IMG/VR virus record: IMGVR_UViG_3300032226_000551
Coordinates: 1 to 64,000 of that record
Length of the DNA: 64,000 nucleotides
Direction: 5' to 3' (one strand)
Origin: a virus
Taxonomy: Duplodnaviria > Caudoviricetes
This document shows positions 23,657-60,766 of the stretch, piece by piece. Position numbers and translations under genes: made by a program. Positions within the stretch are counted from its first letter, which is position 1; each line of letters begins with the position of its first letter. The notes beneath the pieces were generated by a model. It searched no databases. It was not told where the DNA came from and saw only the letters and a program-made list of their open reading frames with translations.

Positions 23657-24331
23657 ATGAACAAATTAAAAAAAGATTACAAAATTGTAACAGCAACTCC
23701 AAATGACTTAAAAACTTTTAAGGCATCCTCACAGTTATGTCTATCATTAGATAAAATAGGTATATCTAATAAATGTAAGGCAATAACCGAAAATAAAGAA
23801 GGATTGCCTAAAATTTATAATTCATTTATCAACGAAGAATATAAAGATTATTATATTATTTTTATACACGACGATGTTTTAATAGAAGATCTATTTTTCG
23901 AAGAAAAACTACAATTAGCCTTTGATAAATACGATATAGTTGGATTGGCAGGATCTAAAAGATGTGATTTGAATTCTCCAATGTCAGCATGGCATTTAAT
24001 GTCAGATAGAAAAGATTGGGTTGGGGAAGTATCACATTCTAAAGATAAAAAGGTATGGACTTCTACTTTCGGTGAAACAGATTCTCGCGCTTTGATTTTA
24101 GATGGTTTGTTTATAGGAGTAAATGTATCAAGATTATTGGAAACTAATACTCGTTTTGATGAAAATTTTACATTTCACCATTATGATATATCTTTTTGTT
24201 TAAATGCAAACAATAATAAATTGAAAATGGGAGTTTATCCTATAAAAGTAACACATTTTGGTTTGGGTGATTCTATGAATACACCGGAATGGCAAGAAAG
24301 CGCAATGAAATTTAAACAACTTTATAAATAA
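23657..24331 (+). CDS. GT-A glycosyltransferase (StrF/Glyco_tranf_2_5-like)
   Basis: IFIHDDV, DIVGLAG, LDGLFIG, FDENFTFHHYDISFC. Confidence 0.85.
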   Translation: MNKLKKDYKIVTATPNDLKTFKASSQLCLSLDKIGISNKCKAITENKEGLPKIYNSFINEEYKDYYIIFIHDDVLIEDLFFEEKLQLAFDKYDIVGLAGSKRCDLNSPMSAWHLMSDRKDWVGEVSHSKDKKVWTSTFGETDSRALILDGLFIGVNVSRLLETNTRFDENFTFHHYDISFCLNANNNKLKMGVYPIKVTHFGLGDSMNTPEWQESAMKFKQLYK

Positions 24332-42634: not shown

Positions 42635-43276
42635 ATGAAAAATTTAAAAGAAAACAATCAAATTTTATCTTTGGATGAAATAAAAAAACAGAAAAAGAAA
42701 GAATATTTTCAAAAAAACAAAAAAATAATAAACGAAAAGAAAAAACAATATCGTATTAAAAATAGAGATTTACATTTACAGCAATGTAAAAAATATAGAG
42801 AAAAAAACAAAGAACGTTTAAAAGAATATCATAAAAATTATAGAAAAATACATGGTGTATCTATGTATTTGAGAGAACAAAAAAATAAAAAAGAAAACTC
42901 AGATAGAGTTAAAAAATATTATAAAAAATATGTAAAAAAAAGAATTTTAAACGATGTAAATTTTAAAATTTCTTTAACCTTGAGAATATCTATAAACAAG
43001 GCATTACATAATAAAAAAATAATAAAGTCAAAAAAAACATTAGATTTATTGGGATGTTCTTTACAGGTTTTTAAAAAACATATAGAAACACAGTTTAAAG
43101 ACGGTATGTCTTGGGATAATCATGGTAAATTTGGTTGGCACATAGATCATATTAAACCAGTATCTTCATTTAATCTTATAAATGAAGATGAACAAAAAAA
43201 ATGTTTTAATTATAAAAATATGCAATCTTTATGGTGGAACGAAAACCTATCTAAAGGAAACAAAAATATATGGTAA
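42635..43276 (+). mobile_element. Free-standing HNH homing endonuclease inserted between uvsY and uvsW
   Basis: Lys-rich helical repeats, LLGCS...QFKDGMSWDNHG...WHIDHIKP...ENLSKGNK. Confidence 0.85.
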
Positions 43277-44691
43277 AAATAGAATATTCTGGTAAATCTA
43301 AACAACAATTACAATTGAATTGTAATACTATTGTTTTGAACAGAATAAGAGAATATTTTTCCGCTCCAAATCCTGCTTTTAGAAGAAATTCAAGATTCTC
43401 ACAGCCTAGAATCTATGCCATCACACCATCAGGTAAATTTGAGTCTGGTTTATTGAATAATATCATATTATATTTTGATGTTAATCAAATTAAGTTTGAA
43501 ATCAACGATGATGTGTTAAAAGATCACAAAAACGGTTTCTCCTCCCCCAAATTAAAGAAATTCGATTTGGTTTACAGAGATCATCAAGAAAAATCTATAA
43601 TCAAATCACTAGAATCTGGAAAAGGTGTTGTAATAATTCCAACAGCAGGTGGTAAAACATTAATAATGGCTGGTTTGATAGAATCATTAAGAGAAAATCT
43701 TAATGATAATGATGCTTTAACATTGGTTATGGTTCCCACTATTCAATTGGTAGAGCAAACTTGTTCTGATTTCATATCATATGGAATGAACAAAGTAACA
43801 AAATGGTCCGGTAATAACAAACCAGATCCAGATGCAACTACAATAGTGGCAGGTACTCAAATATTGATGTCTGATAATACAGATTTGTCTATTTTAGATG
43901 ATGTCAAAATACTAATGATAGATGAATGTCATGGATTAAAAAAGGACAACGAAATAAATAAAATTTTAAAATTTATAAAAACCAATTTTAAATATGGTTT
44001 TACCGGAACGATGCCATCTACAAAGATTGATGAATGGAATATCATCGGAAAACTTGGTCCAATAGTATATCAAGAAAAAACAGAAGATTTAAGAAATAAA
44101 AAGTATATATCAAATTTTAAAATAGTTATCTTGAATGTTATTCATAAAAATATACCTACATTTTCTTTAAATTTTAGTAAACCCGCAGAAGCATATCAAA
44201 GTGAAATGGACTTTCTTCTACAATCAGAAAGAAGAAATGAAATTATTTGTAAATTAGCGGATAAATTAACTAATAATACGATTATAATGGTTGATAGAAT
44301 AGATCATGGAATCAATATTATTGATATTTTAAGTAAAATAACAAAAAAACAATTCTATTTCATTAGAGGGTCTACCGAAATAGAGGAAAGAGAACAAATA
44401 AGATCATTGATGGACGTAAAAAATGATGTTATAGTTGTAGCTATATCTAAAATTTTTAGTACTGGTATAAATATACCCAATTTACACAATATAATTTTTG
44501 CATCTGCTGGAAAAGCCAAAATCAAAATAATGCAATCAATAGGTAGAGCATTGAGATTACATCCAACTAAAACCATGGCAAATATATTCGATATTTCGGA
44601 TAATACCAAATATGGAAAAAAGCATGTAAAAGAAAGAAAGAACCTTTACGATTCGGAGAAATTTAATTATGAAGAAAAAACTATACAATGA
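43270..44691 (+). CDS. uvsW: UvsW-like SF2 helicase
   Basis: PTAGGKT, DECH, GFTGT, STGINIPNLH, QSIGRALR. Confidence 0.93.
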   Translation: MVKIEYSGKSKQQLQLNCNTIVLNRIREYFSAPNPAFRRNSRFSQPRIYAITPSGKFESGLLNNIILYFDVNQIKFEINDDVLKDHKNGFSSPKLKKFDLVYRDHQEKSIIKSLESGKGVVIIPTAGGKTLIMAGLIESLRENLNDNDALTLVMVPTIQLVEQTCSDFISYGMNKVTKWSGNNKPDPDATTIVAGTQILMSDNTDLSILDDVKILMIDECHGLKKDNEINKILKFIKTNFKYGFTGTMPSTKIDEWNIIGKLGPIVYQEKTEDLRNKKYISNFKIVILNVIHKNIPTFSLNFSKPAEAYQSEMDFLLQSERRNEIICKLADKLTNNTIIMVDRIDHGINIIDILSKITKKQFYFIRGSTEIEEREQIRSLMDVKNDVIVVAISKIFSTGINIPNLHNIIFASAGKAKIKIMQSIGRALRLHPTKTMANIFDISDNTKYGKKHVKERKNLYDSEKFNYEEKTIQ

Positions 44692-45271
44692 AGAAGATTT
44701 AATAGATGATTTAGAAGATGATTTAGAAGAAGAAATCGTTTTGGATGAAAGTGAATCCGAAGATATTGATTCTGATGAAGAAATTTCTGATGAAATTTTA
44801 CTGGATGATGATATCATATCTTTAGATGATGTCATTAAACCAAAAAGAAGAAAAAGAGGAGCGAAAAAAGAAGAATTTTACGTTGAACCGAAAAAATTTG
44901 ACGAAGAGATTTTAAATTATTATGATACTGGTGTTCTAACAAATGAATTAGCCGATATGGTTAGTAAAATAGCTCATAAATTAAGTTATGCTTCAAATTT
45001 TATAAATTACACATATCGTGAAGATATGGTTGGTGATGCTTTAATTAGAATGTTTAAGGCATTGATGTCAAAAAAATATGATAGAGTAAAGGGAACAAAT
45101 CCTTTCTCATATTTTACCAGAATTGCATTTAATGCTTTTAGAAACAGAATCAAAAAAGAAAAACATATCAATGAAACACATTTAAAATACCAAGAAGAGA
45201 TTATGTTTATGTCCGAAAATCAAAGTCTTTATAAAAACAAAAAAAATATATACGGTAATGATCAAAAATAA
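44669..45271 (+). CDS. gp55: Late-transcription sigma factor (T4 gp55-like) with acidic N-terminal extension
   Basis: LSYASNFINYTYREDMVGDA...NPFSYFTRIAFNAFRNRIKKEK. Confidence 0.92.
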   Translation: MKKKLYNEEDLIDDLEDDLEEEIVLDESESEDIDSDEEISDEILLDDDIISLDDVIKPKRRKRGAKKEEFYVEPKKFDEEILNYYDTGVLTNELADMVSKIAHKLSYASNFINYTYREDMVGDALIRMFKALMSKKYDRVKGTNPFSYFTRIAFNAFRNRIKKEKHINETHLKYQEEIMFMSENQSLYKNKKNIYGNDQK

Positions 45272-46295
45272 TAAAGTTGGATTATTCACAGATATTCACA
45301 TTGGTTTGTTTCAAGATAGTCCTGTTTGGCATGATATAGTTTTAAACTTTGCTAAATGGTCTGCTAATGAGTTTTTAAACAAGGGAATTGATGACATTAT
45401 TATATGCGGAGACATATTTCACAACAGGTCAGAAATATCGGTGGCAACATTGGACATAGCTAAGAGATTTTTTGATTATTTTAAAGATTTTCAAATATAC
45501 ATATTGGCAGGAAATCATGATAGTTATTTTAAAGATAACAGTACGGTAAATTCAATATCGATTTTTGATGGTTGGAATAACATAAAAATAGTAGATAAAG
45601 AACCGAAACAAATAAAACTCAAAGATAAAACCGCCGCATTGGTTCCTTGGGGTACAACATATCAAGATATACCAAACAGTGATATAATTTTTGGACATTT
45701 TGAGATTTCATCGTTTTACATGAATACATATAAAGTATGTGAACATGGAATGCAGTCGAGTGATCTGTTTAAGAAGTCCAAAACTATTGTATCTGGACAT
45801 TTTCACAAAAAAGATCATCGCAAATATGAAAACGGTGAAATAGTTTATTTGGGAAGTCCATATCAGCAGAATTTTGGAGATACGATGGATCAACGTGGAA
45901 TCTATATCTATGATATAGACAATAATGAATTTGAATTTATTGAAAATGATATATCACCAAAATATTTTAAACTATCTGTTAGTAAAATATTGAGTAATTC
46001 GGATGATATTAAAAATAAAATAGAAAATAACCATGTTAGCTTGGTTGTAGATTGTGAAATAGACTACGAAAACCTCAATTTACTAAGCTCAAAGCTTCAA
46101 AAACACTCGCCAGTAAATTTTAGAATAGATTATCAAGATGTAGAAACAAAAAATGACACCAAAATAGTGGAAAAAAATTTAGAATTTGTTAATATATTAG
46201 ATGATATGGAATTTTATATCAATAATATTGATATAAAAAATAAAAAAGAAGTTTTAGAATATATAAAGGAAATTTACACTCTCAAAAATACATGA
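45258..46295 (+). CDS. gp47: Recombination nuclease (T4 gp47/Mre11/SbcD)
   Basis: DIHIG, GDIFH, GNHD, GHFH, YLGSPY. Confidence 0.95.
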   Translation: MIKNNKVGLFTDIHIGLFQDSPVWHDIVLNFAKWSANEFLNKGIDDIIICGDIFHNRSEISVATLDIAKRFFDYFKDFQIYILAGNHDSYFKDNSTVNSISIFDGWNNIKIVDKEPKQIKLKDKTAALVPWGTTYQDIPNSDIIFGHFEISSFYMNTYKVCEHGMQSSDLFKKSKTIVSGHFHKKDHRKYENGEIVYLGSPYQQNFGDTMDQRGIYIYDIDNNEFEFIENDISPKYFKLSVSKILSNSDDIKNKIENNHVSLVVDCEIDYENLNLLSSKLQKHSPVNFRIDYQDVETKNDTKIVEKNLEFVNILDDMEFYINNIDIKNKKEVLEYIKEIYTLKNT

Positions 46296-47077
46296 ACAAT
46301 AACGAAATAGGAATAGGAATAATTGATGTTTATTCGGATGAAGATTTACAAAATTGTATTTCTTCTATACCACAAGAATTTAAAGATAATATTGTAACAG
46401 TTTCAAATAAACGGAAACCTTCAATAGTTTGTAATAGACACTATTCTAATGATATACCATTTGCTACACTTAGAAATTATCTATTAACACAATTAAGAAT
46501 CAAAGGATTTAAATATTATTTTATTTTAAATTCAAATATTAAAATAAAAAATCCTGATATATTCAATAATACAATAAAACTTGCCAATACCTTTGGCACT
46601 TGGTTTATTACAGGACATGGCGATAAAAATGTAACACTAGAAGACGATTCAAACAACTTGTCTTTGAATATTAGTCCAACATTGAATACAAATTTTATAT
46701 TTTTATACTCTGGTATAATTAAAAATTTTGGTTTCTTTGACGAAAGATTTTTTGATACAAAAGATTTGGATGTTTTAGATTATATATTAAAACTTAGAAG
46801 AAAAGAAGTATATCCCCCGAATCATTATAACCCAACAATCGATTCTTCTGATGTTGAAGAATCTTCATCCGAAATCGAAAAAATAAATTTTAAAGATTTT
46901 AGCACAATTCAAAAAAATAATGGAAATATGCAAAAATCATTGGAAATGACTTTTGCATATTTCTATCATGAACACAAATATATACCAAATCAAAATGATC
47001 CAGTTGGTGTAACTCAAGATGAATTGTTTAAATTCATGGAAAAATTACAAGCGCAATATGGAAACAGTCAAAAATAA
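46292..47077 (+). CDS. Degenerate GT2-like glycosyltransferase paralogue
   Basis: Aligns by eye to next two genes but has NSN in place of EDD. Confidence 0.65.
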   Translation: MNNNEIGIGIIDVYSDEDLQNCISSIPQEFKDNIVTVSNKRKPSIVCNRHYSNDIPFATLRNYLLTQLRIKGFKYYFILNSNIKIKNPDIFNNTIKLANTFGTWFITGHGDKNVTLEDDSNNLSLNISPTLNTNFIFLYSGIIKNFGFFDERFFDTKDLDVLDYILKLRRKEVYPPNHYNPTIDSSDVEESSSEIEKINFKDFSTIQKNNGNMQKSLEMTFAYFYHEHKYIPNQNDPVGVTQDELFKFMEKLQAQYGNSQK

Positions 47078-47882
47078 AATTGGTTGCGCTTTAATAACCT
47101 GTGACAGATTGGATTTTTATAAAAAATCCTGTGGTTCTTTGTTAAACTCTATTAAAGATAAAAACATAGAGTGTGTTGTAGTAAACGATGGTATCGAGAA
47201 AATAAAAGAATGTGAATGTTCTTATATAGAAACTACTGGAAAGTGTGGTGTTTCTGTTGCTAAAAATAAAGGATTGGATTTTTTAATTAAAAGCGGATGC
47301 GAACATATATTCTTAATGGAAGACGATATTCAAATTACAAATGGAGAAGTTTTCCAAGCATACATTGATGCATCCAAAAAAACCGGAATAAAACATTTTA
47401 ACTATGCCTTACATGGTAATCACAATTTAAACCGCTTTGGAGAACCAGATATAAGAAAAACTGTAAAATACCCAAACGGAATAGAGGTTGATCTATATAG
47501 TAATGTTTTGGGAGCATTTAGTTATTATCATATCGATGTATTAAACGGTATAGGACTATTTGATGAAGGCTATTATAACGCAATGGAGCATGTTAAGCAT
47601 ACCTATGATGCATCATTAAAGGGTTATACTACGCCTTGGAGATGGTTTGTTGATATACATAATTCATCCACTTATTTGAAAGACATTGTACCCGATCATC
47701 AGCAATCTAAAATAAGAAACGATTCAGATTTTCAAAATACTTTTAAAAAAGGTTTGGATAGGTTTATCGAACAAACCGGATTTAGTGTGGTGCATGGATA
47801 TGGTAAATCGGAACCAATTATATCAGAAGAAGAATGTTTAAAGAATTTAAGAGAAATATGGAAAAAATATCATCAGGAATAG
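47058..47882 (+). CDS. GT2-family glycosyltransferase
   Basis: ITCDR, VVNDG, GVSVAKN, FLMEDD, GLFDEGY. Confidence 0.88.
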   Translation: METVKNKIGCALITCDRLDFYKKSCGSLLNSIKDKNIECVVVNDGIEKIKECECSYIETTGKCGVSVAKNKGLDFLIKSGCEHIFLMEDDIQITNGEVFQAYIDASKKTGIKHFNYALHGNHNLNRFGEPDIRKTVKYPNGIEVDLYSNVLGAFSYYHIDVLNGIGLFDEGYYNAMEHVKHTYDASLKGYTTPWRWFVDIHNSSTYLKDIVPDHQQSKIRNDSDFQNTFKKGLDRFIEQTGFSVVHGYGKSEPIISEEECLKNLREIWKKYHQE

Positions 47883-49336
47883 GTGTTGCAATTATAACAT
47901 ATAATAGACCCGACTATTATAAAAGGGTATTAGAATCGATACCTAGAAATATGATAGACTTCTTGGTTGTTGTGAATGACGGTTACGACATTTATACAAA
48001 AGATAACGATGCGGAAATTGTAATTCAAACTAACAAGCAAATGGGTGTTGCTGTTTCAAAGAACTATGCAATCAAAGTGTTGGTGGAGAAATTTAATTGC
48101 GAGCATATCTTCTTAATAGAAGACGATATCATAATAAAAAGACCTGATGTGTTTGAAGCATATATAAAAGCTGCAAATTCAACAGGGATTCATCATTTGT
48201 GTTATGAAAAGGTTGCAGGAAACGAAAAGTCCTTGAAATATACATTAGAACAACCGGATGGTGTTAAATTGGGCTTTTATCACAATCCTCAAGGTGCTTT
48301 TATGTATGTAAATGCGAATATTCTTAAAAAAATAGGATATTTTGATGAAAATTATGTAAATGCGTTTGAACATATAGATTTTGCTTATTCTTTGATACAA
48401 AAAAACGTAGCTCCCCCATTTTGGTATTTTCCTGATCTGCTAAACAGTGAAGATTATATAACAGATATAGAAGGAAGTAATCAAAATTCATCAATAACCA
48501 ATAAAGAGGGATATAATCATAATTGGCAAAGATCCGCTCAATATTTTATAAAAAAATGGGGGAAATTTACAAACGAAATTATAGATGAAGGTATAGATAA
48601 TTTAAAAAACAATATAATTTTCTTACAAACAAATTATAGCAGGAAGAAAAATGTCAATAAGAATCAAAAATTGACCATTGTTGTTCCATATAGAGATAGA
48701 AAGGTAGCATTGGATATATTAATACCGAATTTGATAGGTTATGTTGGAAAACAAGTGGAAAATTATGAAATTATCGTTGTAGAACAAGATGATAACAACC
48801 CTTTTAATAAAGGAAAATTGAACAATATAGGATTTAAACTTAAATCGGAAGATTCTACGTATGTATGTTTTCATGACGTAGACTTAATTCCTGAATTTTC
48901 TGATTATAGTTATCCAGAAAGACCATCACATTTAAGTAGTCATTGTAGCCAGTTTGCATACATTAATATACCAGACAAAATAATGGGGGGTGTAATAACG
49001 TTTAAAAATGAACATTACGAACAAGTAAACGGTTTTAGTAATGAATATGAAGGATGGGGAAAAGAAGACGATGATTTATATTTAAGATGCGAAAGAGATA
49101 ATATAATACCATATAAACATCCATTTGGTAGATATTTTAGCGTTCCGCACAAGTTGAGACTGTCGGACGATAATGAAAAGGAAATGCATAAAATAAATGG
49201 TAAAAGATATACAGAATTTTCAGAAGGAAAAATTGATATAAAAAATGATGGAATAAATACAATATCGAATTATAAAATAAATGAGGTGATTAATATAAAT
49301 CCATTTACAAAACATTATAAAATTAAATATGCATAA
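47858..49336 (+). CDS. Two-domain glycosyltransferase: GT2 plus GT7 (beta-1,4-galactosyltransferase-like)
   Basis: N: ITYNR, LIEDD; C: IVVPYRDR, FNKGKLNNIG, FHDVD, NGFSNEYEGWGKEDDD. Confidence 0.9.
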   Translation: MEKISSGIGVAIITYNRPDYYKRVLESIPRNMIDFLVVVNDGYDIYTKDNDAEIVIQTNKQMGVAVSKNYAIKVLVEKFNCEHIFLIEDDIIIKRPDVFEAYIKAANSTGIHHLCYEKVAGNEKSLKYTLEQPDGVKLGFYHNPQGAFMYVNANILKKIGYFDENYVNAFEHIDFAYSLIQKNVAPPFWYFPDLLNSEDYITDIEGSNQNSSITNKEGYNHNWQRSAQYFIKKWGKFTNEIIDEGIDNLKNNIIFLQTNYSRKKNVNKNQKLTIVVPYRDRKVALDILIPNLIGYVGKQVENYEIIVVEQDDNNPFNKGKLNNIGFKLKSEDSTYVCFHDVDLIPEFSDYSYPERPSHLSSHCSQFAYINIPDKIMGGVITFKNEHYEQVNGFSNEYEGWGKEDDDLYLRCERDNIIPYKHPFGRYFSVPHKLRLSDDNEKEMHKINGKRYTEFSEGKIDIKNDGINTISNYKINEVININPFTKHYKIKYA

Positions 49337-49413
49337 AAAATACAATTTCACTATAGATTATTCGATTAAAGATGTTAATTTTGATAAATGAATAATGTTT
49401 TTTTAAAAGATAT

Positions 49414-50964
49414 ATGACAACTAAAATTTTAATTAAATTTCCAACCAGAGAAAGACCTGAAAAATTCTTTCAAGTATTGAACCTATATTATCAAAAATCA
49501 AAAGATATCAATAATATAGAATTTTTAATATCATGTGACTCGGATGATTCTACCATGAATAATCCAGTAGTAATTAAAAAACTGGAAAATGCTAAAAAAC
49601 ACATCAATTTAAATTATTATTTTGGAAATAGTAAAAGTAAAGTTGAGGCTATCAATTCTGATATTGAAAAAATTAAAAATTGGGACATACTATTATTAGC
49701 TTCCGACGACATGATACCAGTTTGTGATGAATATGATCAAATTATAAGAGATGATATGCTCACATATTATAAAAATGGCGATGGAGTTCTTTGGTATAAT
49801 GATGGTAATAGAAATGACCTTATTACGCTGTGTATTTTTGATAAAAAATATTATGAAAAATTTAATTATATATATAATCCGGAATATACTAGCCTGTGGT
49901 GTGATAATGAATTTACCGATGTTTGTTTATTTTTAAAAAAATGTACAAAAATAAATAAAACTATAATAGAACATGCTCATCCCGCTTATCAAAAAGCAAA
50001 TTTTGATAAATTATATGTTAAAAATGAATCTTTTTTTAAAAAAGACGAAGATATTTATAATAAAAGAAAAATTAAAAATTTTGATTTGTGCATAGATATA
50101 TGCACAGTCGCAGATTCAAAATATTTTCTTCAGGGATTAACATTATTTGAATCTATAAAACAAAAATCATCAATATCTTTCAAGTTTCATTTTTTGTGTA
50201 TAAATGAAGAAGATTACTTAAAACATAAAGACAAATATGAAAATATTATATTTTATAATGCTAAAGATTTTTTAGATAAAAGTAAATTATTATATAATCA
50301 TTACATAAATGATTATAGATATTTTTGTTGGTCATTAGCTTCATTTTTTTCATATTTTTTATTGAAATATGAAAATAAAAATAGTGTAATTTATATAGAT
50401 AGTGATATATGTTTTTATAAAGACATTAAAATTTTATATGAAAAAATAAAAAATAAAGATTGTGCTATATTTAGACATAGACAATTTTCTTTAAATGAAA
50501 ATAGAATGGATGGATTGTTTAATGTTGGTGTTGTTTATTTCAACAACACACCAAACGGCGTTAATGTACTCGGTTGGTGGGCAGATGCTGTTTTAAATAA
50601 AAAATACCCGCATTTAGCTACATGCGGGGATCAGAAATATCTGGAAGCATTTCCTCAAATAGTAGGAGAAGATAATATTTTTATTGATGGTGATATAGGT
50701 CACGGAGCACCGTGGATGTGGCAATTATATGATTTATCAAAAATTAATGATGGTTACATAACTTGGAATGGCGAAAAACAAGAATATTATTTTAGTCATT
50801 TTTCTCAATTTAGTTATGATATAGAAAATAATAAATTTAAACATAGTACATTACACGAACCATATACTAATAATAATCAAATTTTTACTAATCCAGTTTT
50901 AGATCAGCATTATAAAGAATATTTTAACATCATTAAACAAACTAAAAATAAATACAATTTATGA
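49414..50964 (+). CDS. Two-domain GT-A glycosyltransferase
   Basis: N: PTRERP, CDSDD, ASDDM, WCDNE; C: YIDSD, FNVG, GDQKYL, APW, HFS. Confidence 0.82.
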   Translation: MTTKILIKFPTRERPEKFFQVLNLYYQKSKDINNIEFLISCDSDDSTMNNPVVIKKLENAKKHINLNYYFGNSKSKVEAINSDIEKIKNWDILLLASDDMIPVCDEYDQIIRDDMLTYYKNGDGVLWYNDGNRNDLITLCIFDKKYYEKFNYIYNPEYTSLWCDNEFTDVCLFLKKCTKINKTIIEHAHPAYQKANFDKLYVKNESFFKKDEDIYNKRKIKNFDLCIDICTVADSKYFLQGLTLFESIKQKSSISFKFHFLCINEEDYLKHKDKYENIIFYNAKDFLDKSKLLYNHYINDYRYFCWSLASFFSYFLLKYENKNSVIYIDSDICFYKDIKILYEKIKNKDCAIFRHRQFSLNENRMDGLFNVGVVYFNNTPNGVNVLGWWADAVLNKKYPHLATCGDQKYLEAFPQIVGEDNIFIDGDIGHGAPWMWQLYDLSKINDGYITWNGEKQEYYFSHFSQFSYDIENNKFKHSTLHEPYTNNNQIFTNPVLDQHYKEYFNIIKQTKNKYNL

Positions 50965-51041
50965 ACACATTTAATAATGAAATTATTGATAATTCAAGCC
51001 CTCGACTATATCAATGCTTTTGTACAAAATAACAAAAAAAT

Positions 51042-51764
51042 ATGAAATTATCATTCAATCAAACTTATAGCAATGATCGCAAGATATTATTAGAAGCAAG
51101 ACTTAGGGATAAAAAGTTTATAGAGTTTCTTTCTTTTTTTGATATTAATATTTTCTCATTCCATAACTGTAATGATAATATTCTTGATTTTTTTAAGAAT
51201 ATTAAAAATAAAATACCTAATGTTAAAATACATATTAATAATAATATTAGTTATACACAATGTATAAGAAGATTGCTACGGATAGTAGAAACTCTTAATG
51301 TAAAACATTTTTTCTTTTATCAGGATGATACATTTAGTTGCGATAATAATATATCATTCGATGGTTTGTTAAATTATGTTTTTAAACAAAATGATATAAT
51401 GTTGACATTATATGAAAGAAAAGAATTTTTTGAAGATGGAACTGTACTACTGGAATCGTTTGATGATTTAGATTTATATTCAAATAATACAGAAAATTTT
51501 GTAAAACATAACAGATGGTCTTTTGATGATTCACCATATATATGTACTACTAACTATTTATCGCAAATATATGATGAGAATTATTTGAATCATTCCGATG
51601 TATGGTCAGCCGAATGTTATAATAATTTTAAATTTAAAACTTCACCTATTAATCGTTATATAACTAATAAATCTTTATTTAAAAATTATAATTTTATAGG
51701 TCGTAATAATTGGAATAAAGATGAAGAAATTAAAACACTTAAAGAAAAAAATATACTACCTTAA
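51042..51764 (+). CDS. Probable GT-A-fold glycosyltransferase
   Basis: FFFYQDD motif, W..E; island context. Confidence 0.55.
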   Translation: MKLSFNQTYSNDRKILLEARLRDKKFIEFLSFFDINIFSFHNCNDNILDFFKNIKNKIPNVKIHINNNISYTQCIRRLLRIVETLNVKHFFFYQDDTFSCDNNISFDGLLNYVFKQNDIMLTLYERKEFFEDGTVLLESFDDLDLYSNNTENFVKHNRWSFDDSPYICTTNYLSQIYDENYLNHSDVWSAECYNNFKFKTSPINRYITNKSLFKNYNFIGRNNWNKDEEIKTLKEKNILP

Positions 51765-51798
51765 TTTTTTTTTAAAAAAATAGTTGCAAATTAAAAAT

Positions 51799-52683
51799 AT
51801 GAAAATAGCATTCGGAATGATTGTTTTTGAAGGTGATTATGTTCTAAAAGAATGTTTAGAACAAGTATATCCTTTTGCTTCACAAATTTTAATAGCAGAA
51901 GGTCCGGTAAATTATTGGCAGAGGCAAGGCAGAACTACTTCTTTAGATCAAACTAATGAAATCTTAGATAATTTCCCAGATCCAGAAAATAAAATTAGAA
52001 TAGTGCATGGTCAATTCAATGAAAAAGATGATCAATGCAAAGCTTACATGCAATATATCAATGATGATATAGATTATATTTGGAATTTAGATTCTGATGA
52101 AATATATAAATCAGAGGATATACAAAAAATTATTAATATATTAAACGAACATCAACCCACTAGTATAGGTGTAAGAAGCTGTTCTTTTTATGGAAGTTTT
52201 GATCATTATTTGACTGGATTTGAACTTAATACAGATAATTTTTTAAGAATTTTTAAATATATCAAAGGTTCTACTTGGCAAACCCACAGACCTCCTACCG
52301 TTCAATACCCTACAGGATCTAATATAGAGAGAAAACATATCAATAGTGATACATTATATAACACATTTGGAATTCAAATGTATCACTATTCTTATGTTTT
52401 TCCTGATCAGGTATACAAAAAAGTTAATTATTATAAAGATAGTGTGAGCAGGGATAATTGCATAGACAATTATTTTAATGAAATTTATTTGCCTTGGGTC
52501 AAAGGTTCTGAACAAGATAAACAAAATATAGAGTCGAAGTTCATTGGTGTACACGAATTTAAACCTCATGTTAGGGGAGAATGTTACACCGCTAAATTTG
52601 AAAATGTTCATCCAGAAGCAATAGAAAAGAATATTTTAAATTTAAAAGAAAAATTTAATTCTCAGCTTAAAAAATATGAATGA
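51799..52683 (+). CDS. GT2-like glycosyltransferase
   Basis: ILIAEG, S.DQT.EIL, WNLDSDEIY, HYSYV. Confidence 0.82.
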   Translation: MKIAFGMIVFEGDYVLKECLEQVYPFASQILIAEGPVNYWQRQGRTTSLDQTNEILDNFPDPENKIRIVHGQFNEKDDQCKAYMQYINDDIDYIWNLDSDEIYKSEDIQKIINILNEHQPTSIGVRSCSFYGSFDHYLTGFELNTDNFLRIFKYIKGSTWQTHRPPTVQYPTGSNIERKHINSDTLYNTFGIQMYHYSYVFPDQVYKKVNYYKDSVSRDNCIDNYFNEIYLPWVKGSEQDKQNIESKFIGVHEFKPHVRGECYTAKFENVHPEAIEKNILNLKEKFNSQLKKYE

Positions 52684-53602
52684 TAAACCTTTAGATTTTT
52701 TTGTTGTGGATTTTGAGTCTATATTAAAAGACGTAAAAATAGAATGTGTTGATAGTCATATCAAAGAATATCTAGAAGGTGGTAGACAAGATATTTTAGA
52801 AAATATTGATTTGTTTTGTGAGAATGTAAGATCTGTAGACAAACCCTTTAAACAATTTGAATTATTTAACAAAATTGATTCAATCAATTCGGATACTATT
52901 ATTGTAATAAGTTTATATTTAGAATTACTACAATACTGGGGTAGACATAATAAAATAAAAGAATTATGTGGATATTATTGCAACAAATATCCAAACAATA
53001 AAATAGTAGTCCATTGGAATCATGATACAGATGCAAAACAAATTTTTAATTTTATAGATGATTATAAAAATTTATATGTATTAAATTTTAATACTAGTTT
53101 GAACCACGAAAGATTTATTATTTTACCTTTTTGGTGTATAAATGATTCTTTTGTAGAAGCTTCTAAAACAAAATTTGCTAACTTGATTTGTTCTCTAAAT
53201 AACGAGTTAAGGTATGAATTATATAATACATTAAATGGTGATCCAAATTTTTATGTTTCACAAAGAGTAGAATATTCAGAATACGAGAATGTATTAAGTT
53301 CTTCTGTTTTTACATTTTGTCCAAAAGGAGTTGGATTATCATCTTATAGATTTTTTGAATGTTTTCATTTGAATACAATACCGATTCTAATTGCAGACGA
53401 TGTTATATTACCTTTTGAAAAGGATTTAGATTATAAAAATTTTATTGTTAAGATACCAGAAAACAAAATTTTAGATTTAAATTATATAAAAAATATATTA
53501 TCTCAAATAAATCAAAATGAATTTTTAGATAAAATAAAAGAAGTAAAAGAATTTTTTACTTTAAAAGGAGCACAAAAAGAAATTTATAAAAAATTAAAAT
53601 GA
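52676..53602 (+). CDS. Exostosin-family (GT47) glycosyltransferase
   Basis: SVFTFCPKGVGLSSYRFFE...IPILIADDVILPF. Confidence 0.85.
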   Translation: MNDKPLDFFVVDFESILKDVKIECVDSHIKEYLEGGRQDILENIDLFCENVRSVDKPFKQFELFNKIDSINSDTIIVISLYLELLQYWGRHNKIKELCGYYCNKYPNNKIVVHWNHDTDAKQIFNFIDDYKNLYVLNFNTSLNHERFIILPFWCINDSFVEASKTKFANLICSLNNELRYELYNTLNGDPNFYVSQRVEYSEYENVLSSSVFTFCPKGVGLSSYRFFECFHLNTIPILIADDVILPFEKDLDYKNFIVKIPENKILDLNYIKNILSQINQNEFLDKIKEVKEFFTLKGAQKEIYKKLK

Positions 53603-54411
53603 TACCTGTAATTTTTATTCACACTGGTTTGCAAGAGTATTTGTTTTATACGTTAAAACAAGCAACTAAATTTAATGACAATGTATATTTAATTGGTGAT
53701 ATTAATCCTAATTTAAATGCAATTAATTTTTTTAATATGCAAGAATATAATCAAGAATTTGATTTTTTTGAAAAGAATTACATTCATTTAACAACTACTC
53801 CATTTAATTATGAATTATTTTGTTATAAAAGATGGTTTGTTTTAAAGAATTTTATGGAGTCTAAAAAAATAGATGTAGTTTTTTATTGTGATTCTGATGT
53901 ATTGTTATTTTCTAACATAGAAAAAGAATGGATCAATTTTAATCAATATGATTTGACTTTATTACACCGGACAGCACCAGTTTCTTCTTTTATAACTTAT
54001 AGAGGGATTACAAATTTTTGTAATATGTTACAAGAAATATATAATAATAAAAATTCTTATCATTACAAAAAGATAGCTTCTCATTATGATGTAAGAAAAG
54101 AATTTAATCTACCAGGTGGAGTTTGTGATATGACCTTATTTGAATACTTTCATTACAATCATGACTTGGGAGGTGGTCCCGGAAGAGTGGGTGAAATGAT
54201 GGGTATTATCAATGACTCTACCTATGATCATAATATAAACACTTCAGATCAAGATTTTTCAATGAAAAATGGATTAAAAAATGTAAAAATAAAAGATGGC
54301 ATTCCTTACGTATATAATGAAAAATTAAAAAAAGACATAAAATTTAATTCTTTACATTTTCAAGGTGGTTCTAAATATTTTATAAAAATGGCTTATGAAA
54401 AATGTAATTGA
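53599..54411 (+). CDS. GT-A glycosyltransferase-like protein
   Basis: ELFCYKRWF, YCDSDVL, CDMTL, LHFQG. Confidence 0.7.
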   Translation: MIPVIFIHTGLQEYLFYTLKQATKFNDNVYLIGDINPNLNAINFFNMQEYNQEFDFFEKNYIHLTTTPFNYELFCYKRWFVLKNFMESKKIDVVFYCDSDVLLFSNIEKEWINFNQYDLTLLHRTAPVSSFITYRGITNFCNMLQEIYNNKNSYHYKKIASHYDVRKEFNLPGGVCDMTLFEYFHYNHDLGGGPGRVGEMMGIINDSTYDHNINTSDQDFSMKNGLKNVKIKDGIPYVYNEKLKKDIKFNSLHFQGGSKYFIKMAYEKCN

Positions 54412-54997
54412 CTCTTGGAAAAATAAAGAGGTTTTTTTAAAACAGCTAAATTTCAATTTAAATGAAATATTATGCACAGACAATTATCCTGAGCATTGGA
54501 AATCATTTATAGTCTTATTAGATAATTTTAAAAATAAAAAAATATTAGATATTGGATGTGGTTGTGGAACATATTATCAAATATGCAAGAAGCACTTTCC
54601 TCATATAGAATATACCGGAATAGATTATGCCGAAGAAGCAATTTCCTTAGCAAAATCTGTATGGAATTATGACAATTTTTATGTTAAGAATTATACAGAC
54701 TTAACTCCAGATTATGTTAGATCTTTCGATTTAATACATTTAGGAGCAGTATTAGACGTATTACCCAACGGTGATGAAGCTCTTGAATTTATACTAAACC
54801 TTTCAGCTAATAACATTCTCATAGGAAGAATGAAATTAACTGATAAAGAAAGTTATTATGAAATATATCAAGCATATGGTGAAATAGAAACATGCGCTTA
54901 TTACCACAATAAACAAAAATTTATTGATATAGCAAAACAATATAACTATTGTATATATAATATAGAAGATAATTTTTACTTAAAAAAACATGAATGA
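54395..54997 (+). CDS. Class I SAM-dependent methyltransferase
   Basis: ILDIGCGCG, YTGIDYA. Confidence 0.9.
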   Translation: MKNVIDSWKNKEVFLKQLNFNLNEILCTDNYPEHWKSFIVLLDNFKNKKILDIGCGCGTYYQICKKHFPHIEYTGIDYAEEAISLAKSVWNYDNFYVKNYTDLTPDYVRSFDLIHLGAVLDVLPNGDEALEFILNLSANNILIGRMKLTDKESYYEIYQAYGEIETCAYYHNKQKFIDIAKQYNYCIYNIEDNFYLKKHE

Positions 54998-55757
54998 TAA
55001 CATAAGCAATATATTTCCTCAGAAATGGGAAAGGGATGATTTAATTTCTTATTTGGATGAATTTTATGAGTTATATAATTCAAGACCTATAAAAGATAAT
55101 AATGGAGGAATGAAGTCGCCTCATATGTTTTCTGCTTGGTATATAATTAAGAAGCTAAAACCAAAATATTTAATAGAAAGTGGAGTTTGGAAAGGCTTAG
55201 GAACTTGGTTTTTTGAAAAGGCTAGTCCAGAAACTAAAATAATATCGATAGACCCATATCCTCATTATAGAGAATATACCAGTCCTAATGTAATTTATCG
55301 TACAGAAGATTTTTTGATAACTAATTGGAGTAAATTTCCTAAAGAAGACACTTTAATATTTTTTGATGATCATCAAAATTTTTTAGAAAGATTAAAAAAA
55401 GCTCAAGAATGGGGATTTAAAAAGATAATGACAGAAGACAATTATCCATATCAACAAGGTGATTGTTACACTCCAAAAAAAATATTATCTAAAAAGGATT
55501 ATGTGATAGATAATGCTGGTCAAAAACAATGGTTTAATCATAACTTAGAGGATTATAATTATTTTATTAATAATATTAGTATATACCAAGAAATGTATCC
55601 TATATTCAAATCAAATATCACAAGATGGGGAGATTCATGGAATGATGAATATCCTACGCCAAAAGCTTTGTTGGATGAATCTTTTAAAGAAAAATATCCA
55701 GTATATTATAAAGAAAAATTAGATTATACATGGATTTGTTATTTAGAATTGAAATAA
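54990..55757 (+). CDS. Methyltransferase-like protein
   Basis: LIESGVWKGLGT, ISIDP, FFDDHQ, EDNY. Confidence 0.65.
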   Translation: MNDNISNIFPQKWERDDLISYLDEFYELYNSRPIKDNNGGMKSPHMFSAWYIIKKLKPKYLIESGVWKGLGTWFFEKASPETKIISIDPYPHYREYTSPNVIYRTEDFLITNWSKFPKEDTLIFFDDHQNFLERLKKAQEWGFKKIMTEDNYPYQQGDCYTPKKILSKKDYVIDNAGQKQWFNHNLEDYNYFINNISIYQEMYPIFKSNITRWGDSWNDEYPTPKALLDESFKEKYPVYYKEKLDYTWICYLELK

Positions 55758-55790
55758 TTAAAAAAGGATAATTTAAACATATTATTATAG

Positions 55791-55818
55791 TTGAAATTCC
55801 ATAAGTTTCGACTATAAT
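55791..55818 (+). promoter_or_regulatory. Early promoter TTGAAA-16-TATAAT inside a 15-bp hairpin
   Basis: Intergenic; -10 ends 8 nt before ATG 55827. Confidence 0.75.
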
Positions 55819-55826
55819 ATATCTAT

Positions 55827-56306
55827 ATGTTTGTAAGCAATGATGAAGAAACTTTCTTTTTCTCTTTTTTAAAAGATGATCTAACAGTTTTAGAATATGG
55901 TTCTGGAAAGTCAACCACTCAAATAAGCCAAAAAGTTAAACACTTGGTTTCTGTTGAACATCAGAAACAGTGGTTTGAAGAAGTTATTAAAGCAATACCT
56001 AAAAATTGTTCTTTAATGTTAAAAGAACCTTCAGAATTGTATATAGAAGGAGGTCAGGATGGATCTTATTCTCAGTTTAAAGATTACATAGAAGCACCCA
56101 TAGAACAAGGCCCTTATGATATTATCTTTATAGATGGAAGAGCGCGAGTAGGTTGCGCCTCTGTCTGCCATCTAATGTCTCATGAAAATACACACATTTT
56201 TATTCACGATTTTCATAGGCCAGAATATCAAGAAGCTTTAAAATATCTTGAATTAAAACAAAGAGTAGGTGAAATGGCTCTTTTTAAAATTAAAAAAAAT
56301 GATTAA
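55827..56306 (+). CDS. SAM-dependent methyltransferase
   Basis: VLEYGSGKST, SVEH, IFIDGRAR, IHD. Confidence 0.85.
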   Translation: MFVSNDEETFFFSFLKDDLTVLEYGSGKSTTQISQKVKHLVSVEHQKQWFEEVIKAIPKNCSLMLKEPSELYIEGGQDGSYSQFKDYIEAPIEQGPYDIIFIDGRARVGCASVCHLMSHENTHIFIHDFHRPEYQEALKYLELKQRVGEMALFKIKKND

Positions 56307-57225
56307 TTTATTTAATTTAAATAAACATATTTTAGATACCTCAAATTATCAAAATCTTTTACATGATAAGATTGTTACTGATTTTGAAAATGTTATTAAA
56401 AAATACGTAGGAGCTAAACATGCAGTATCTTTTAATAGTGCCACTAATGCTATATTTTTAGCACTTTTAAATAAAAACGTAACAGTCGAAGTACCTAGTA
56501 TGATACCATCCGTGGTACTAAATGCTATTATTACTTCTAATAATCAATATAAATTTACAGATGACACAGAATGGATAGGTAATTCTTATATACTACATAA
56601 ATTTAAAAATTATAAGATAGTAGATTCCGCTCAAAAATTAGAAAAAGATCAATTTAAAAAAGAATGTGATCCTAATGATTTATTAATTTTTAGTTTTTAT
56701 CCTACAAAACCAGTAGGAGGTTGTGATGGAGGAATGATAGTTTCCGATGATGAAGAGAAAATCAATTATTTAAGAGAGATGGCATTCAATGGAATGTCTT
56801 ATGCTAATAATAACTGGGAAAGAGTAGTAAAATATACGGGATATAAAATGTATATGAATAGTATACAAGCAGACATAGCTCTAAGAAATTTTAAATTGTA
56901 TAATAATAAACTTAAAAAATTAAAAAAAATAAGAAATTTATACAACAAAAAATTGGGATATACTAATTCCAGTAATCATTTATATAGAATAGATGTAGAT
57001 GATAGAAATGGATTTATTAAATATATGAAAGATAATGGTGTATTATGTGGTATTCATTACGAAGCAGCACATTTGAATCCGGTTTATGCTCTTTCTGAAT
57101 CAAAATGTCCAATTTCAGAAATTAAATCCACAAAAACCGTATCAATACCTTTCCATGAAAATTTGACAGAACAAGATATATATTGTATATTAGAACTAAT
57201 ATGTCAATGGAACCATATAAATTAA
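56299..57225 (+). CDS. DegT/DnrJ/FdtB-type PLP sugar aminotransferase (compact)
   Basis: NSATNA, DSAQ, SFYPTK...GG, GYKMYM, GIHY, SIPFH. Confidence 0.9.
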   Translation: MINLFNLNKHILDTSNYQNLLHDKIVTDFENVIKKYVGAKHAVSFNSATNAIFLALLNKNVTVEVPSMIPSVVLNAIITSNNQYKFTDDTEWIGNSYILHKFKNYKIVDSAQKLEKDQFKKECDPNDLLIFSFYPTKPVGGCDGGMIVSDDEEKINYLREMAFNGMSYANNNWERVVKYTGYKMYMNSIQADIALRNFKLYNNKLKKLKKIRNLYNKKLGYTNSSNHLYRIDVDDRNGFIKYMKDNGVLCGIHYEAAHLNPVYALSESKCPISEIKSTKTVSIPFHENLTEQDIYCILELICQWNHIN

Positions 57226-57602
57226 AATCTTTCGATGATGAAAGAGGTTCTTTATTGCCTCTAGAATTTAGCTCTATTCCTTTTGAAGTTAAAAGGATAT
57301 TTGTAGTTAATAACGTACCTATTAATGTTTTAAGAGGTAATCATTCACATTATAAAACCAAACAATTAATTGTTTGTACTAAGGGTAAGGTTAATGTTAT
57401 ACTTCATGATGGAAAAAAAGAAAAAATATACAATCTTAATAAATTTCAAAATATATTAGTACCTGAACTGATTTGGGATTCTCAAATCTTCTTAACCGAA
57501 GATACAGAACTTTTAGTTTTATGCTCTACCCCATATGATAAAAACGATTATATATTCGATTTTGACTTTTTTTTAAAAATTAAAAACAATGAAAAAAATT
57601 AA
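57201..57602 (+). CDS. fdtA: NDP-sugar 3,4-ketoisomerase (FdtA/QdtA cupin)
   Basis: DERGSL, PFEVKRIF, RGNHSH, LLVLCSTPYDKNDYI. Confidence 0.9.
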   Translation: MSMEPYKLKSFDDERGSLLPLEFSSIPFEVKRIFVVNNVPINVLRGNHSHYKTKQLIVCTKGKVNVILHDGKKEKIYNLNKFQNILVPELIWDSQIFLTEDTELLVLCSTPYDKNDYIFDFDFFLKIKNNEKN

Positions 57603-59388
57603 TTTTAAAAATATTTGTATTAAAAACTTTTTATCAGTAGGTGATAAAAAAATAGATATAGATTTTCAAACTGGCATAAATCTACTAACAGGTATTAATA
57701 AAGATAATAATACAAGAAATGGTGTTGGTAAATCATCCATAATAGAATCTGTATATTGGTGTTTGTTTGGTAGTACTATAAGAGATATAAAAAACGATAA
57801 AATAATTCACAACCAACAAAAAAAAGGATGTGATGTAACATTAAGTTTTGATGTTATTGGTGTAGACTCTGATAAAAACTCATATCAGCTAATAAGAAGC
57901 TTGGGACCGAGTAAAATTCAGTTATTAAAGGATAATGTAGACATAACCTTATCAACGATTCCAGCAAATGATGAATTCATACAAAATTTAATAGGTGCTA
58001 CACCAGAAGTATTCAATAATGCTGTCATCATGACAGCTAACAATACACTTCCCTTCATGGCACAGAAGAAGATAGAGAAAAGAAAATTCATAGAAGGCAT
58101 CTTGAACTTAAATATCTTCACGGAAATGCTTTTAAAGGCAAGATCTGATTTCAATGACACCAAAAAACAAAATGATATTCTTTCTAATAATTTTTTAAAC
58201 CAACAAAAGAATCTAGACATTTTTGAAAGCCAAATTGTAAAAAATAAACAAAAAAAGAAAGATAAGATTGATAGTATCAATGTTACAATTCAAAAAATTA
58301 AAGATGATATAGCATCAACCGAAAAAATAAATGTATCTTTGGATGACATATTAGTAAAAATTAAAGAAAATGATACAAAACTTATTAAATTAGAAACCGG
58401 ATTGACTAAACTAGATGAAGACATCTTAGAATATTCCAAAAAACAAATAGAATATAAAACATATATTCAAAATGAAAAAAATAAGTTAAAAGAATTTGAT
58501 AAAAAGAAAGATTTCTGTCCAACCTGTAATAGAAAATTCGAAAATTTAATAGAAGATAATCACAAATGTTTAAAAGAAGATTGTTTATTGATTATAGAAA
58601 AAAATGAAATGCTTTTAACTGATATCAACGACAAAATTAATGTCAAAAACACAAAAAAACAAGAAATAAAACAATTTATTTTTGGCATAAAAGACAAAAA
58701 TAAAAAATTACAAGAAGAAAAAAATTCCGTAGAGTTAAAAAACCAAAAGATAAACAATTTTAAGGATAAAATAAAAGAATACGAGAGTCAGATAGAAGAA
58801 TTAATAAACGAAAAGGATGCAACTGACGAACAAATAGAAGTAATTAAAAAAGAAATTTGTAAGATAGAAAAAGATTTAGAAAATGTTAAAAAGGAACTGT
58901 CCATTTTAGAAGAAATAAAATTTGTTTTATCAGAAGAAGGCGTGAAAACACATATTATTAAAAAGTTATTAACCTTATTCAATCAAAAAATCAATTTTTA
59001 TTTAAAATCTATGGATGCACCATGCACATGTGAATTTGATGAGATGTTTGAAGAGAAAATTATTAATGTATATGGTAACGAATGCTCTTATTTCAATTTT
59101 AGTGGCGGGGAAAGAAAGAGAATAGACATTTCTGTACTATTTGCATTCCAAGATATTTTAAGATTGTATTCAGGTACATCTTTTTCATTGAGTATTTACG
59201 ATGAATTGTTTGATTCGGCTATAGATGAATCCGGAATAGAGAAAATAATGAATATTTTGAAAAAAAGAGTGGAAGATTATAATGAGTGTATATACATAGT
59301 TTCTCATAATAAGAGTTCTATTAAAAGTAATTTTGATAATATACTGGAAATAGAGAAATATAAGGGAGAAACAAGTTTAAAAACTTGA
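57589..59388 (+). CDS. gp46: Recombination ATPase (T4 gp46/Rad50/SbcC)
   Basis: KNFLSVG, NGVGKS, CPTC hook, FSGGE, DELFD, SH. Confidence 0.95.
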   Translation: MKKINFKNICIKNFLSVGDKKIDIDFQTGINLLTGINKDNNTRNGVGKSSIIESVYWCLFGSTIRDIKNDKIIHNQQKKGCDVTLSFDVIGVDSDKNSYQLIRSLGPSKIQLLKDNVDITLSTIPANDEFIQNLIGATPEVFNNAVIMTANNTLPFMAQKKIEKRKFIEGILNLNIFTEMLLKARSDFNDTKKQNDILSNNFLNQQKNLDIFESQIVKNKQKKKDKIDSINVTIQKIKDDIASTEKINVSLDDILVKIKENDTKLIKLETGLTKLDEDILEYSKKQIEYKTYIQNEKNKLKEFDKKKDFCPTCNRKFENLIEDNHKCLKEDCLLIIEKNEMLLTDINDKINVKNTKKQEIKQFIFGIKDKNKKLQEEKNSVELKNQKINNFKDKIKEYESQIEELINEKDATDEQIEVIKKEICKIEKDLENVKKELSILEEIKFVLSEEGVKTHIIKKLLTLFNQKINFYLKSMDAPCTCEFDEMFEEKIINVYGNECSYFNFSGGERKRIDISVLFAFQDILRLYSGTSFSLSIYDELFDSAIDESGIEKIMNILKKRVEDYNECIYIVSHNKSSIKSNFDNILEIEKYKGETSLKT

Positions 59389-59412
59389 TATTTTACTAAT
59401 TTATAATAAAAT
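59385..59412 (+). promoter_or_regulatory. Early promoter TTGATA-16-TAAAAT
   Basis: -10 ends 7 nt before ATG 59420. Confidence 0.6.
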
Positions 59413-59419
59413 ATAGTAT

Positions 59420-60727: not shown

Positions 60728-60732
60728 ATTTC

Positions 60733-60760
60733 TTGATTTTTATTCCAAAAACATTATTAT
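60733..60760 (+). promoter_or_regulatory. Early promoter TTGATT-16-TATTAT
   Basis: -10 ends 6 nt before gp43 ATG. Confidence 0.6.
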
Positions 60761-60766
60761 AATCTC

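Follow-up and report, generated by a model that had tools for sequence, protein, structure and literature searches.

Positions 1 to 64,000 of the IMG/VR virus record IMGVR_UViG_3300032226_000551 (the window, i.e. the whole stretch analysed here; the linear record itself runs to 114,347 bp, with an estimated completeness of ~54%) carry an island of 13 plus-strand open reading frames (ORFs; 46292-57602, named c01-c13; Table 1) between gp47 and gp46 of an uncultured aquatic T4-like phage. The island appears to encode a wholly soluble, two-part glycan assembly line that would build a methylated amino-sugar oligosaccharide on an acceptor other than DNA, most probably one or more virion proteins, a reading that is favoured tentatively and at somewhat less than an even chance. 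The first part (c01-c03, 46292-49336) is found throughout the lineage and would attach a conserved inner core of sugars to the acceptor, with c01 possibly acting as a non-catalytic recognition or scaffold subunit. The second part (c04-c13) is strain-specific, is traded between phages and would provide each strain with a surface glycan of its own.

The 13 ORFs fill the interval with overlaps or gaps of ≤80 nt, as an earlier sequence-only reading of this DNA had described, and its tally of gene types was borne out by Pfam, PHROG, BLAST and structure matches: eight glycosyltransferase (GT)-like genes with ten domains (seven firm, one degenerate and two by ESM Atlas structure only), three methyltransferase-fold genes (c09, c10, c11), one DegT aminotransferase (c12) and one QdtA/FdtA 3,4-ketoisomerase (c13). 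In c04, phrog_14945 matches residues 4-223 and GT8 matches the C-terminal half (36.4 bits vs a cut-off of 24.3). No Pfam, PHROG or PDB sequence match was found for c05 and no Pfam or PDB sequence match for c08, although a feature search of c08 returned Nucleotid_trans and GT8 at 0.91. PDB sequence searches with c01, c04, c05, c08 and c10 gave nothing usable, and the NCBIfam scan gave sub-threshold matches only. No transmembrane-grade hydrophobic stretch is present in any of the 13 proteins, in line with the claim that the pathway has no membrane anchor. Two further GTs had been proposed elsewhere in the window; one was recovered (23657-24331), while no second was found by PF00535 and PF00534 searches of the record and scans of ten other window ORFs.

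Relatives used for comparison were 54 viral contigs or loci fetched with gp47 as query (gp47 identity 47-94%). c01 lies directly after gp47 in 49 of these, followed by c02 and a gene like the N-terminal domain of c03 (c03N) where the locus is long enough; the remaining five loci end inside or just past gp47. The AlphaFold model of c02 (predicted local distance difference test, pLDDT, 91.5) gave Foldseek matches to B4GALNT1, TarP, TarS and GnT-I (probability 1.0, template-modelling score, TM, ~0.5), with mimivirus R699 also among the fold matches. The EDD motif of c02 is invariant in 19 orthologues and its start is probably the ATG at 47058. c03N is 38% identical to c02 and is matched by phrog_2456, and c03 also matches Glyco_transf_7N (74 bits) and 7C (62.6 bits), well over the Pfam cut-offs. 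In an alignment of 13 phages (the window plus 12 relatives), c02 and c03N carry ‘VVNDG’ and ‘EDD’ (DxD-type) where c01 has ‘VSNK’ and ‘NSN’ or ‘TSN’, and this loss of both motifs (NDG, DxD) is conserved in the aligned relatives. c01, for which no Pfam or PDB sequence match was found, is thus predicted to be a degenerate enzyme, a pseudo-glycosyltransferase, and yet it retains its place at the head of the island. Outside the lineage, c03N is ~28-31% identical to GTs of Mycobacterium phages and of HK542-like coliphages, the former accounting for 321 of the 357 records that match the c02/c03N family.

Beyond the trio, ORFs of the relatives mostly lack BLAST similarity to those of the window, while gp46 on the far side is 47-79% identical. 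The distance from gp47 to gp46 is 4.3-9.7 kb in 17 loci and >10 kb in others; at 11.3 kb the interval in the window is large, not exceptional. A Pfam tally of 82 ORFs from the variable part of relatives identified GT2 (12), GT11 (4), GT6 (3), GT47 (3), GT7C (3) and GT10 (1) glycosyltransferases, FkbM (9) and Methyltransf_24 (8) methyltransferases, two CmcI-type rhamnosyl O-methyltransferases, one C-methyltransferase, and six nucleoside diphosphate (NDP)-sugar epimerases/dehydratases, four of them GDP-mannose 4,6-dehydratases. Because this distal content differs between loci, each relative appears to build its own outer glycan on shared inner machinery.

The closest relatives, L003 and L009, share 89-95% nucleotide identity with the window from uvsW to ~49250 (the end of c03), and in L003 the N-terminal domain of c04 is 80% identical up to 50087, after which nothing aligns until gp46 (77-79%). 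Window positions 49691-57626 match L060, which sits on a 121-kb contig estimated to be 34% complete, in four collinear blocks with 66-71% nucleotide identity, similarity across c04 spanning 49691-50818. In L060 each of the two c04 domains has its own ORF, counterparts of c06-c13 come next with 46-75% protein identity (c06, 75%; c07, 53%; c08, 64%), and there are extra FkbM and Methyltransf_24 genes; L060 has no c05 homologue, and two FkbM methyltransferases occupy the c05 position. Its flanks share only PhoH (31% identical protein) with the genome of the window, and no homologues of gp47, gp46, polymerase or capsid were detected on this 34%-complete contig fragment. The N-terminal half of c04 is 56-87% identical in relatives bearing other C-terminal halves. 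These alignments identify 50088-57600 as a swapped-in module, similar to that of an otherwise dissimilar large-phage contig. Its left breakpoint lies at the domain junction of c04, which is therefore a chimera, with an N-terminal domain native to the lineage and a C-terminal domain belonging to the incoming module. The sequence-only reading had suspected a swappable cassette and proposed comparing its content among relatives; that comparison bears the idea out, as the slot and its first three genes persist in the relatives, with differing gene families in place of the others, the distal 7.5 kb here being ~70% identical to a dissimilar phage.

Parts of the module are spread more widely. c12 is 50-69% identical (301-304 amino acids, aa) on 11 other viral contigs, and c13 is 39-70% identical on those with the c12-c13 pair. 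The pair is also found on contigs with a T4-like capsid or polymerase just 29-37% identical, so glycan genes are exchanged across distant phages. L061 and L064 carry a 30% identical homologue of the 23657-24331 GT near the pair, and in L070, a distant T4-like relative, the module is present in rearranged form, immediately upstream of neck and sheath genes.

The gene families of the module support the methylated amino-sugar branch that had been proposed for the assembly line. As in the established QdtA/QdtB and FdtA/FdtB pathways, c13 followed by c12 would convert deoxythymidine diphosphate (dTDP)-4-keto-6-deoxyglucose to dTDP-3-amino-3,6-dideoxyhexose. c13 matches QdtA (PDB 4zu7; E 2e-22) with the catalytic histidines in place (‘rgnHsHyk’ aligned to ‘rgyHsHkk’). 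The PDB matches of c12 are WbpE and perosamine synthases, and its lysine motif (‘sFyPtKPvg’) aligns with that of WbpE (‘sFfPsKPlg’). The N-terminal part of c12 is ~40 residues shorter than in the solved enzymes and the whole protein ~40-60 residues shorter; c12 is predicted to be a pyridoxal phosphate (PLP) aminotransferase. The c12 ORF opens at a GTG (56269), and because alignments to the homologues on 11 viral contigs begin at ORF residue 6-11, the ATG at 56299 is the likely start. Neither RmlA (PF00483) nor RmlB (PF16363) was found in the 54%-complete record, and the dTDP-4-keto-6-deoxyglucose substrate is therefore probably supplied by the host, or else by genes in the missing half of the genome. 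Pfam scans of the island proteins found no N-acetyl, acyl or formyl transferase domain for a QdtC/FdtC step.

Methylation of the sugars would be carried out by c09, c10 and c11, and the outer residues would be attached by the GT8, GT2 and GT47 enzymes plus two probable GT-A enzymes. The nearest solved structures to c09 are the N-methyltransferases BpumL and BamL (E 3e-7), relatives of a type that methylates peptides and small amines. N-methylation by c09 is possible, given these amine N-methyltransferase relatives, and is assigned low weight because the sugar N,N-dimethyltransferases TylM1 and DesVI are not among the 14 PDB matches of c09 at E ≤0.01. A mycaminose-like dimethylamino sugar was also considered and, with TylM1 and DesVI missing from those matches, was set aside as a guess. 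c10 belongs to a family of at least 753 clusters (at 90% identity), none of which has a Pfam domain or an informative source name; members come from marine and freshwater metagenomes, some on contigs of 167-287 kb. The best 120 clusters are 56-82% identical to c10, and the motifs ‘ESGVWKGLGT’ and ‘FFDDHQN’ are invariant. c10 and c11 homologues adjoin in L060, and the two genes are 69 nt apart in the window (55758-55826). A natural 404-aa fusion protein (P0099) joins a c10 homologue (N-terminal half) to a C-terminal half that is 51% identical to c11 and contains PF13578, and c10 and c11 are therefore probably functionally linked. Separately, the amino-sugar genes c11-c13 may be transcribed from an internal promoter at the TTGAAA-16-TATAAT site before c11.

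Several lines bear on the acceptor. The trio is kept across divergent phages, including some of just 47-60% gp47 identity, which suggests a conserved acceptor provided by the phage itself and not a variety of host glycans. A virion acceptor is favoured because the module in L070 abuts structural genes and the separate GT at 23657-24331 heads the neck/sheath block, because c02/c03N family genes in siphophages lie just before HNH and terminase genes, and because mycobacteriophage GTs are reported to glycosylate virions (Freeman et al. 2023, as cited in PMC11256854 and PMC12619734). A fuller version, in which the core primes a virion protein with its dead GT as the subunit that recognises the acceptor, virions are coated with strain-specific oligosaccharides and outer modules are traded in a serotype-like system, is more doubtful than the general reading.

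Against these stand a number of observations. The case for a virion acceptor is circumstantial, every line on the acceptor being indirect, and the record itself is little more than half complete. The island lies in the replication/recombination block and is translationally coupled to gp47. No TATAAATA late box is present on the plus strand in the island, and there is no obvious co-regulation with structural genes; the TATAAATA motif is rarer than chance in the window, and promoter-like sites are overall as numerous as expected from shuffled sequence. BLASTP of all the island proteins against gp108-110 of mycobacteriophage Che8, the GTs of a phage with a reportedly glycosylated capsid, gave no match better than E 0.04, and the acceptors of the top structural matches to c02 are glycolipids, teichoic acid or glycans, not polypeptides. 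No Ser/Thr sequon signal was found (G-x-T-G, 5 observed vs 8.9 expected). Finally, c05 and c08 are probable GTs as leads drawn solely from ESM Atlas structure matches.

Some of the same features would suit remodelling of the host envelope, in which the soluble enzymes, working on the inner side of the membrane, alter lipid-linked intermediates of the host (O-antigen, capsule or teichoic-acid-like) and a host flippase or transporter exports the product, possibly blocking superinfection or preventing progeny from adhering to debris. GT-rich islands in pelagimyophages and cyanomyophages are generally interpreted in this way (PMC7029224, PMC12801897). Prophage TarP and TarS, which are among the fold neighbours of c02, are soluble GT-As that act on wall teichoic acid; O-antigen loci typically contain GT8, GT2 and the FdtA/DegT pathway; and an early-type gene context suits enzymes needed during infection. 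The sequence-only reading had argued from the missing flippase to a cytoplasmic acceptor; the enzymes do appear cytoplasmic and anchor-less, but this step is weaker than it seemed, as TarP-like GT-As act on lipid-linked polymers that the host exports. On domain content, a surface-polysaccharide route operated solely by the phage is excluded, because the initiating phosphoglycosyl transferase (PF02397) and the Wzx flippase (PF01943) are absent from seven records, including four near-complete relatives. The same absence from the phage's own record and those four relatives, together with the lack of any membrane segment, counts against envelope remodelling in general, which would leave a lytic phage with 8-13 dedicated genes wholly dependent on host export within one cycle. 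With the trio kept across such divergent phages and the module adjoining virion genes in L070, an envelope target is rated unlikely, though it is the strongest competitor to a virion protein.

The acceptor could also be some other soluble molecule, either a non-structural protein of phage or host or a glycoside, free or small-molecule, that is produced in the infected cell. This would agree with the solubility of all the enzymes, with the lack of an identifiable acceptor and with the peptide- and amine-methylating relatives of c09. Fast diversification and exchange of the outer modules fit an exposed surface better than an intracellular metabolite, and we know of no precedent for a phage set of ten GT domains making a soluble product; this alternative is considered improbable.

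DNA hypermodification, here an oligosaccharide on a modified base going beyond the glucosylated hydroxymethylcytosine (hmC) of T4 or the arabinosylated 5-hydroxycytosine (5hoC) of RB69, had been the other option raised from the sequence, with the remark that a-gt of T4 lies near genes 47 and 55. The remark is correct, as a-gt adjoins gene 47; it is on the far (gene 55) side, genes 47 and 46 of T4 being separated by two small ORFs only. Replication and recombination genes surround the island, and poly-arabinosylated cytosine in Straboviridae and GT clusters dependent on methyltransferase/TET (MT/TET) enzymes are documented (PMC13326640; 10.1101/2023.12.21.572611). However, the ThyA family (PF00303), which supplies hmC, hydroxymethyluracil (hmU) and 5hoC (PMC13326640), is absent from the phage's own record and from four relatives that carry the same trio and are 92-100% complete, the set used for absence tests, whereas the control search was positive in 10 of 14 genomes. 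Tet_JBP (PF12851) had no match in these five records, a search in which the control genomes gave none either; Pfam scans of the island proteins likewise showed no Tet/JBP domain. The search for hydroxymethylase and TET genes that had been proposed as a check thus came back empty for the fragment and the four near-complete relatives. T4-type alpha- and beta-glucosyltransferase families (PF09198, PF11440) were not found in Pfam scans of the 13 proteins, and PF00534 is absent from the record. The GT families GT7, GT8 and GT47 here, and GT6, GT10 and GT11 in relatives, are glycan-extending, while documented DNA arabinosyltransferases are GT-B/GT4-like (PMC13326640); the GT47 of c07 belongs to neither that type nor the T4 alpha/beta-GT families. 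Palindromic 6-mers are depleted (median observed/expected, O/E, 0.76, p 2e-11), compared with 0.72 in Che8 and 0.91 in T4 (first 50 kb), an indirect comparison with one control phage of each kind (Che8 unmodified, T4 modified). Thus, while T4 (alpha/beta-glucosyltransferases and gp42) and RB69/DLP3 (arabinosyl-5hoC; PMC13326640) resemble the present phage in being T4-like with GT genes next to gene 47, they differ in the ThyA-family enzyme, the T4 GT families and palindrome avoidance, and a DNA acceptor is judged very improbable.

Table 1 Glycan island c01-c13, its borders and associated features in the window.
Feature	Coordinates	Strand	Evidence and remarks
Separate GT outside island	23657..24331	+	Glyco_tranf_2_5 E 1e-9; heads neck/sheath gene block
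gp47, Mre11/SbcD-like nuclease subunit	45258..46295	+	Metallophos match; left slot border; stop overlaps c01 start
c01, predicted degenerate GT-A paralogue	46292..47077	+	26% identity to c03N, BLAST E 1e-10; first gene of trio
c02, GT-A glycosyltransferase	47019..47882	+	phrog_2456, phrog_1579; AlphaFold model
c03, two-domain GT: N, GT-A paralogue of c02; C, GT7 (beta-1,4-galactose/N-acetylgalactosamine (Gal/GalNAc)-transferase-like)	47834..49336	+	
c04, chimeric two-domain GT	49414..50964	+	N domain to ~50087, C domain 50089-50961 (GT8)
c05, probable GT-A	51042..51764	+	ESM Atlas structure matches to GT2 and HtrL clusters, TM 0.67-0.72
c06, GT2	51784..52683	+	Glycos_transf_2 30.7 bits vs cut-off 23.3
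c07, exostosin-type GT47	52676..53602	+	Exostosin_GT47 65.5 bits vs cut-off 33.4
c08, probable GT-A (nucleotide-diphospho-sugar transferase-like)	53599..54411	+	ESM Atlas TM 0.91 to clusters named glycosyl transferase
c09, class I S-adenosylmethionine (SAM)-dependent methyltransferase	54395..54997	+	Methyltransf_31, _12, _23, _25, _11
c10, class I methyltransferase-fold protein	54990..55757	+	AlphaFold pLDDT 92.8; Foldseek: TrmR, CmcI, COMT-type methyltransferases
Promoter-like site, sigma-70-type, TTGAAA-16-TATAAT	55791..55818	+	11/12 consensus; among three best in 19 kb
c11, small Methyltransf_24-like protein	55827..56306	+	weak Methyltransf_24 match, E 0.007
c12, predicted DegT/QdtB-type PLP sugar aminotransferase, short viral form	56299..57225	+	DegT_DnrJ_EryC1 E 2e-34, 119.8 bits
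c13, dTDP-4-keto-6-deoxyhexose 3,4-ketoisomerase (QdtA/FdtA cupin)	57183..57602	+	FdtA E 9e-35, 119.8 bits; right end of swapped module
gp46, Rad50/SbcC-like ATPase	57589..59388	+	SMC_N, AAA_23; right slot border

The genes around the island identify the source phage as T4-like. By Pfam, the ORF at 43270-44691 encodes a UvsW-type helicase, that at 44669-45271 a sigma-70 region 2 protein taken to be gp55, and that at 60767-63343 a family B DNA polymerase (gp43); a gp44-type clamp-loader subunit, gp25 and lysozyme were found upstream of the island. The nearest cultured phages are cyanomyophages, whose gp23 and gp43 match the capsid protein and polymerase at 29-35% identity, and a megablast comparison of 44000-64000 with cultured phages returned nothing, indicating no near-identical cultured relative. 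G+C content around the island is 23-32%, with no compositional break at the island. In the 114-kb record GGCC has an O/E of 0.31, and ACCGGT, GGTACC and CTGCAG are absent (~8-17 copies per strand expected); complete loss of several 6-bp palindromes suggests past exposure to particular host restriction systems.

Other variation in relatives was noted next to the slot. gp55 is a single 537-aa ORF in L001 (2081-3694), L002 and L006, compared with 200 aa in the window, owing to an in-frame insertion of ~337 aa at window position ~45010 that has a sub-threshold Intein_splicing match (E 2e-6) and no Rfam intron match; these copies probably carry an intein that the window copy lacks. In L003 (9087-10015) and L009, an insertion of ~0.9 kb, possibly a mobile element, lies between gp55 and gp47, where the window genes overlap. 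On the other side, a 435-aa protein without a Pfam match (59420-60727; 68-95% identity in relatives) separates gp46 from the DNA polymerase; in T4 this region holds rpbA and the clamp and clamp-loader genes (45, 44, 62).

The role of ‘LPS (lipopolysaccharide)-like’ GT genes in abundant aquatic T4-like phages has been in question since they were found in cyanophages, published proposals being host-surface change and DNA protection. This lineage offers a cleaner case, with a fixed slot, a three-gene core that includes a predicted pseudo-enzyme, and outer modules visibly moving between phages. If the target is the virion, lake and ocean phage particles would carry variable glycan coats, with a bearing on adsorption, grazing, aggregation and host range.

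Among known systems, the QdtA/QdtB (FdtA/FdtB) pathway of bacterial S-layer and O-antigen loci shares with the island a cupin 3,4-ketoisomerase with a His pair and a DegT PLP aminotransferase with the lysine motif; the island differs in lacking QdtC/FdtC and in having three methyltransferase-fold genes instead. Giant viruses (chlorovirus capsid glycans, mimivirus fibril glycans) also use multi-domain soluble GTs, methyltransferases and amino- or deoxy-sugar pathways, and their glycans combine a conserved core with variable outer sugars. Nucleocytoviricota clusters are among the ESM Atlas neighbours of c05 and c08, but the present element is from a bacteriophage and the homology found is limited to shared GT folds.

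Mycobacteriophages Che8 and Rita likewise have soluble phage GTs, sometimes with a methyltransferase, and no export machinery (Freeman et al. 2023, cited in PMC11256854), and the c02/c03N family has homologues in Mycobacterium phages. However, the island proteins have no detectable similarity to Che8 gp108-110, and their genes lie in a replication block rather than beside terminase; the island is also far larger and includes an amino-sugar pathway.

The closest parallels are the GT islands of aquatic T4-like phages, which have a T4-like core genome, many soluble GTs (GT8, GT2, GT10, GT11 and GT25-type families) together with sugar-nucleotide enzymes, and content that varies between relatives. 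Up to 13 GTs are found in cyanomyophages P-SSM2, S-SCSM1 and S-SCSM2R (PMC12801897), and in the host-recognition cluster of pelagimyophages a GT island lies between VrlC and gp14, among tail fibres (PMC7029224). The slot described here is instead between gp47 and gp46 in the replication/recombination block, and PMC7029224 makes no mention of either gene. Further differences are the fixed three-gene core with a degenerate GT that precedes the variable part, and a capsid protein and polymerase ≤35% identical to those of any cultured phage. GT-rich hypervariable islands of aquatic T4-like phages have thus already been described (PMC7029224, PMC12801897); new here are the slot between gp47 and gp46, the fixed trio with its predicted pseudo-glycosyltransferase, and module exchange with a breakpoint at the level of a protein domain.

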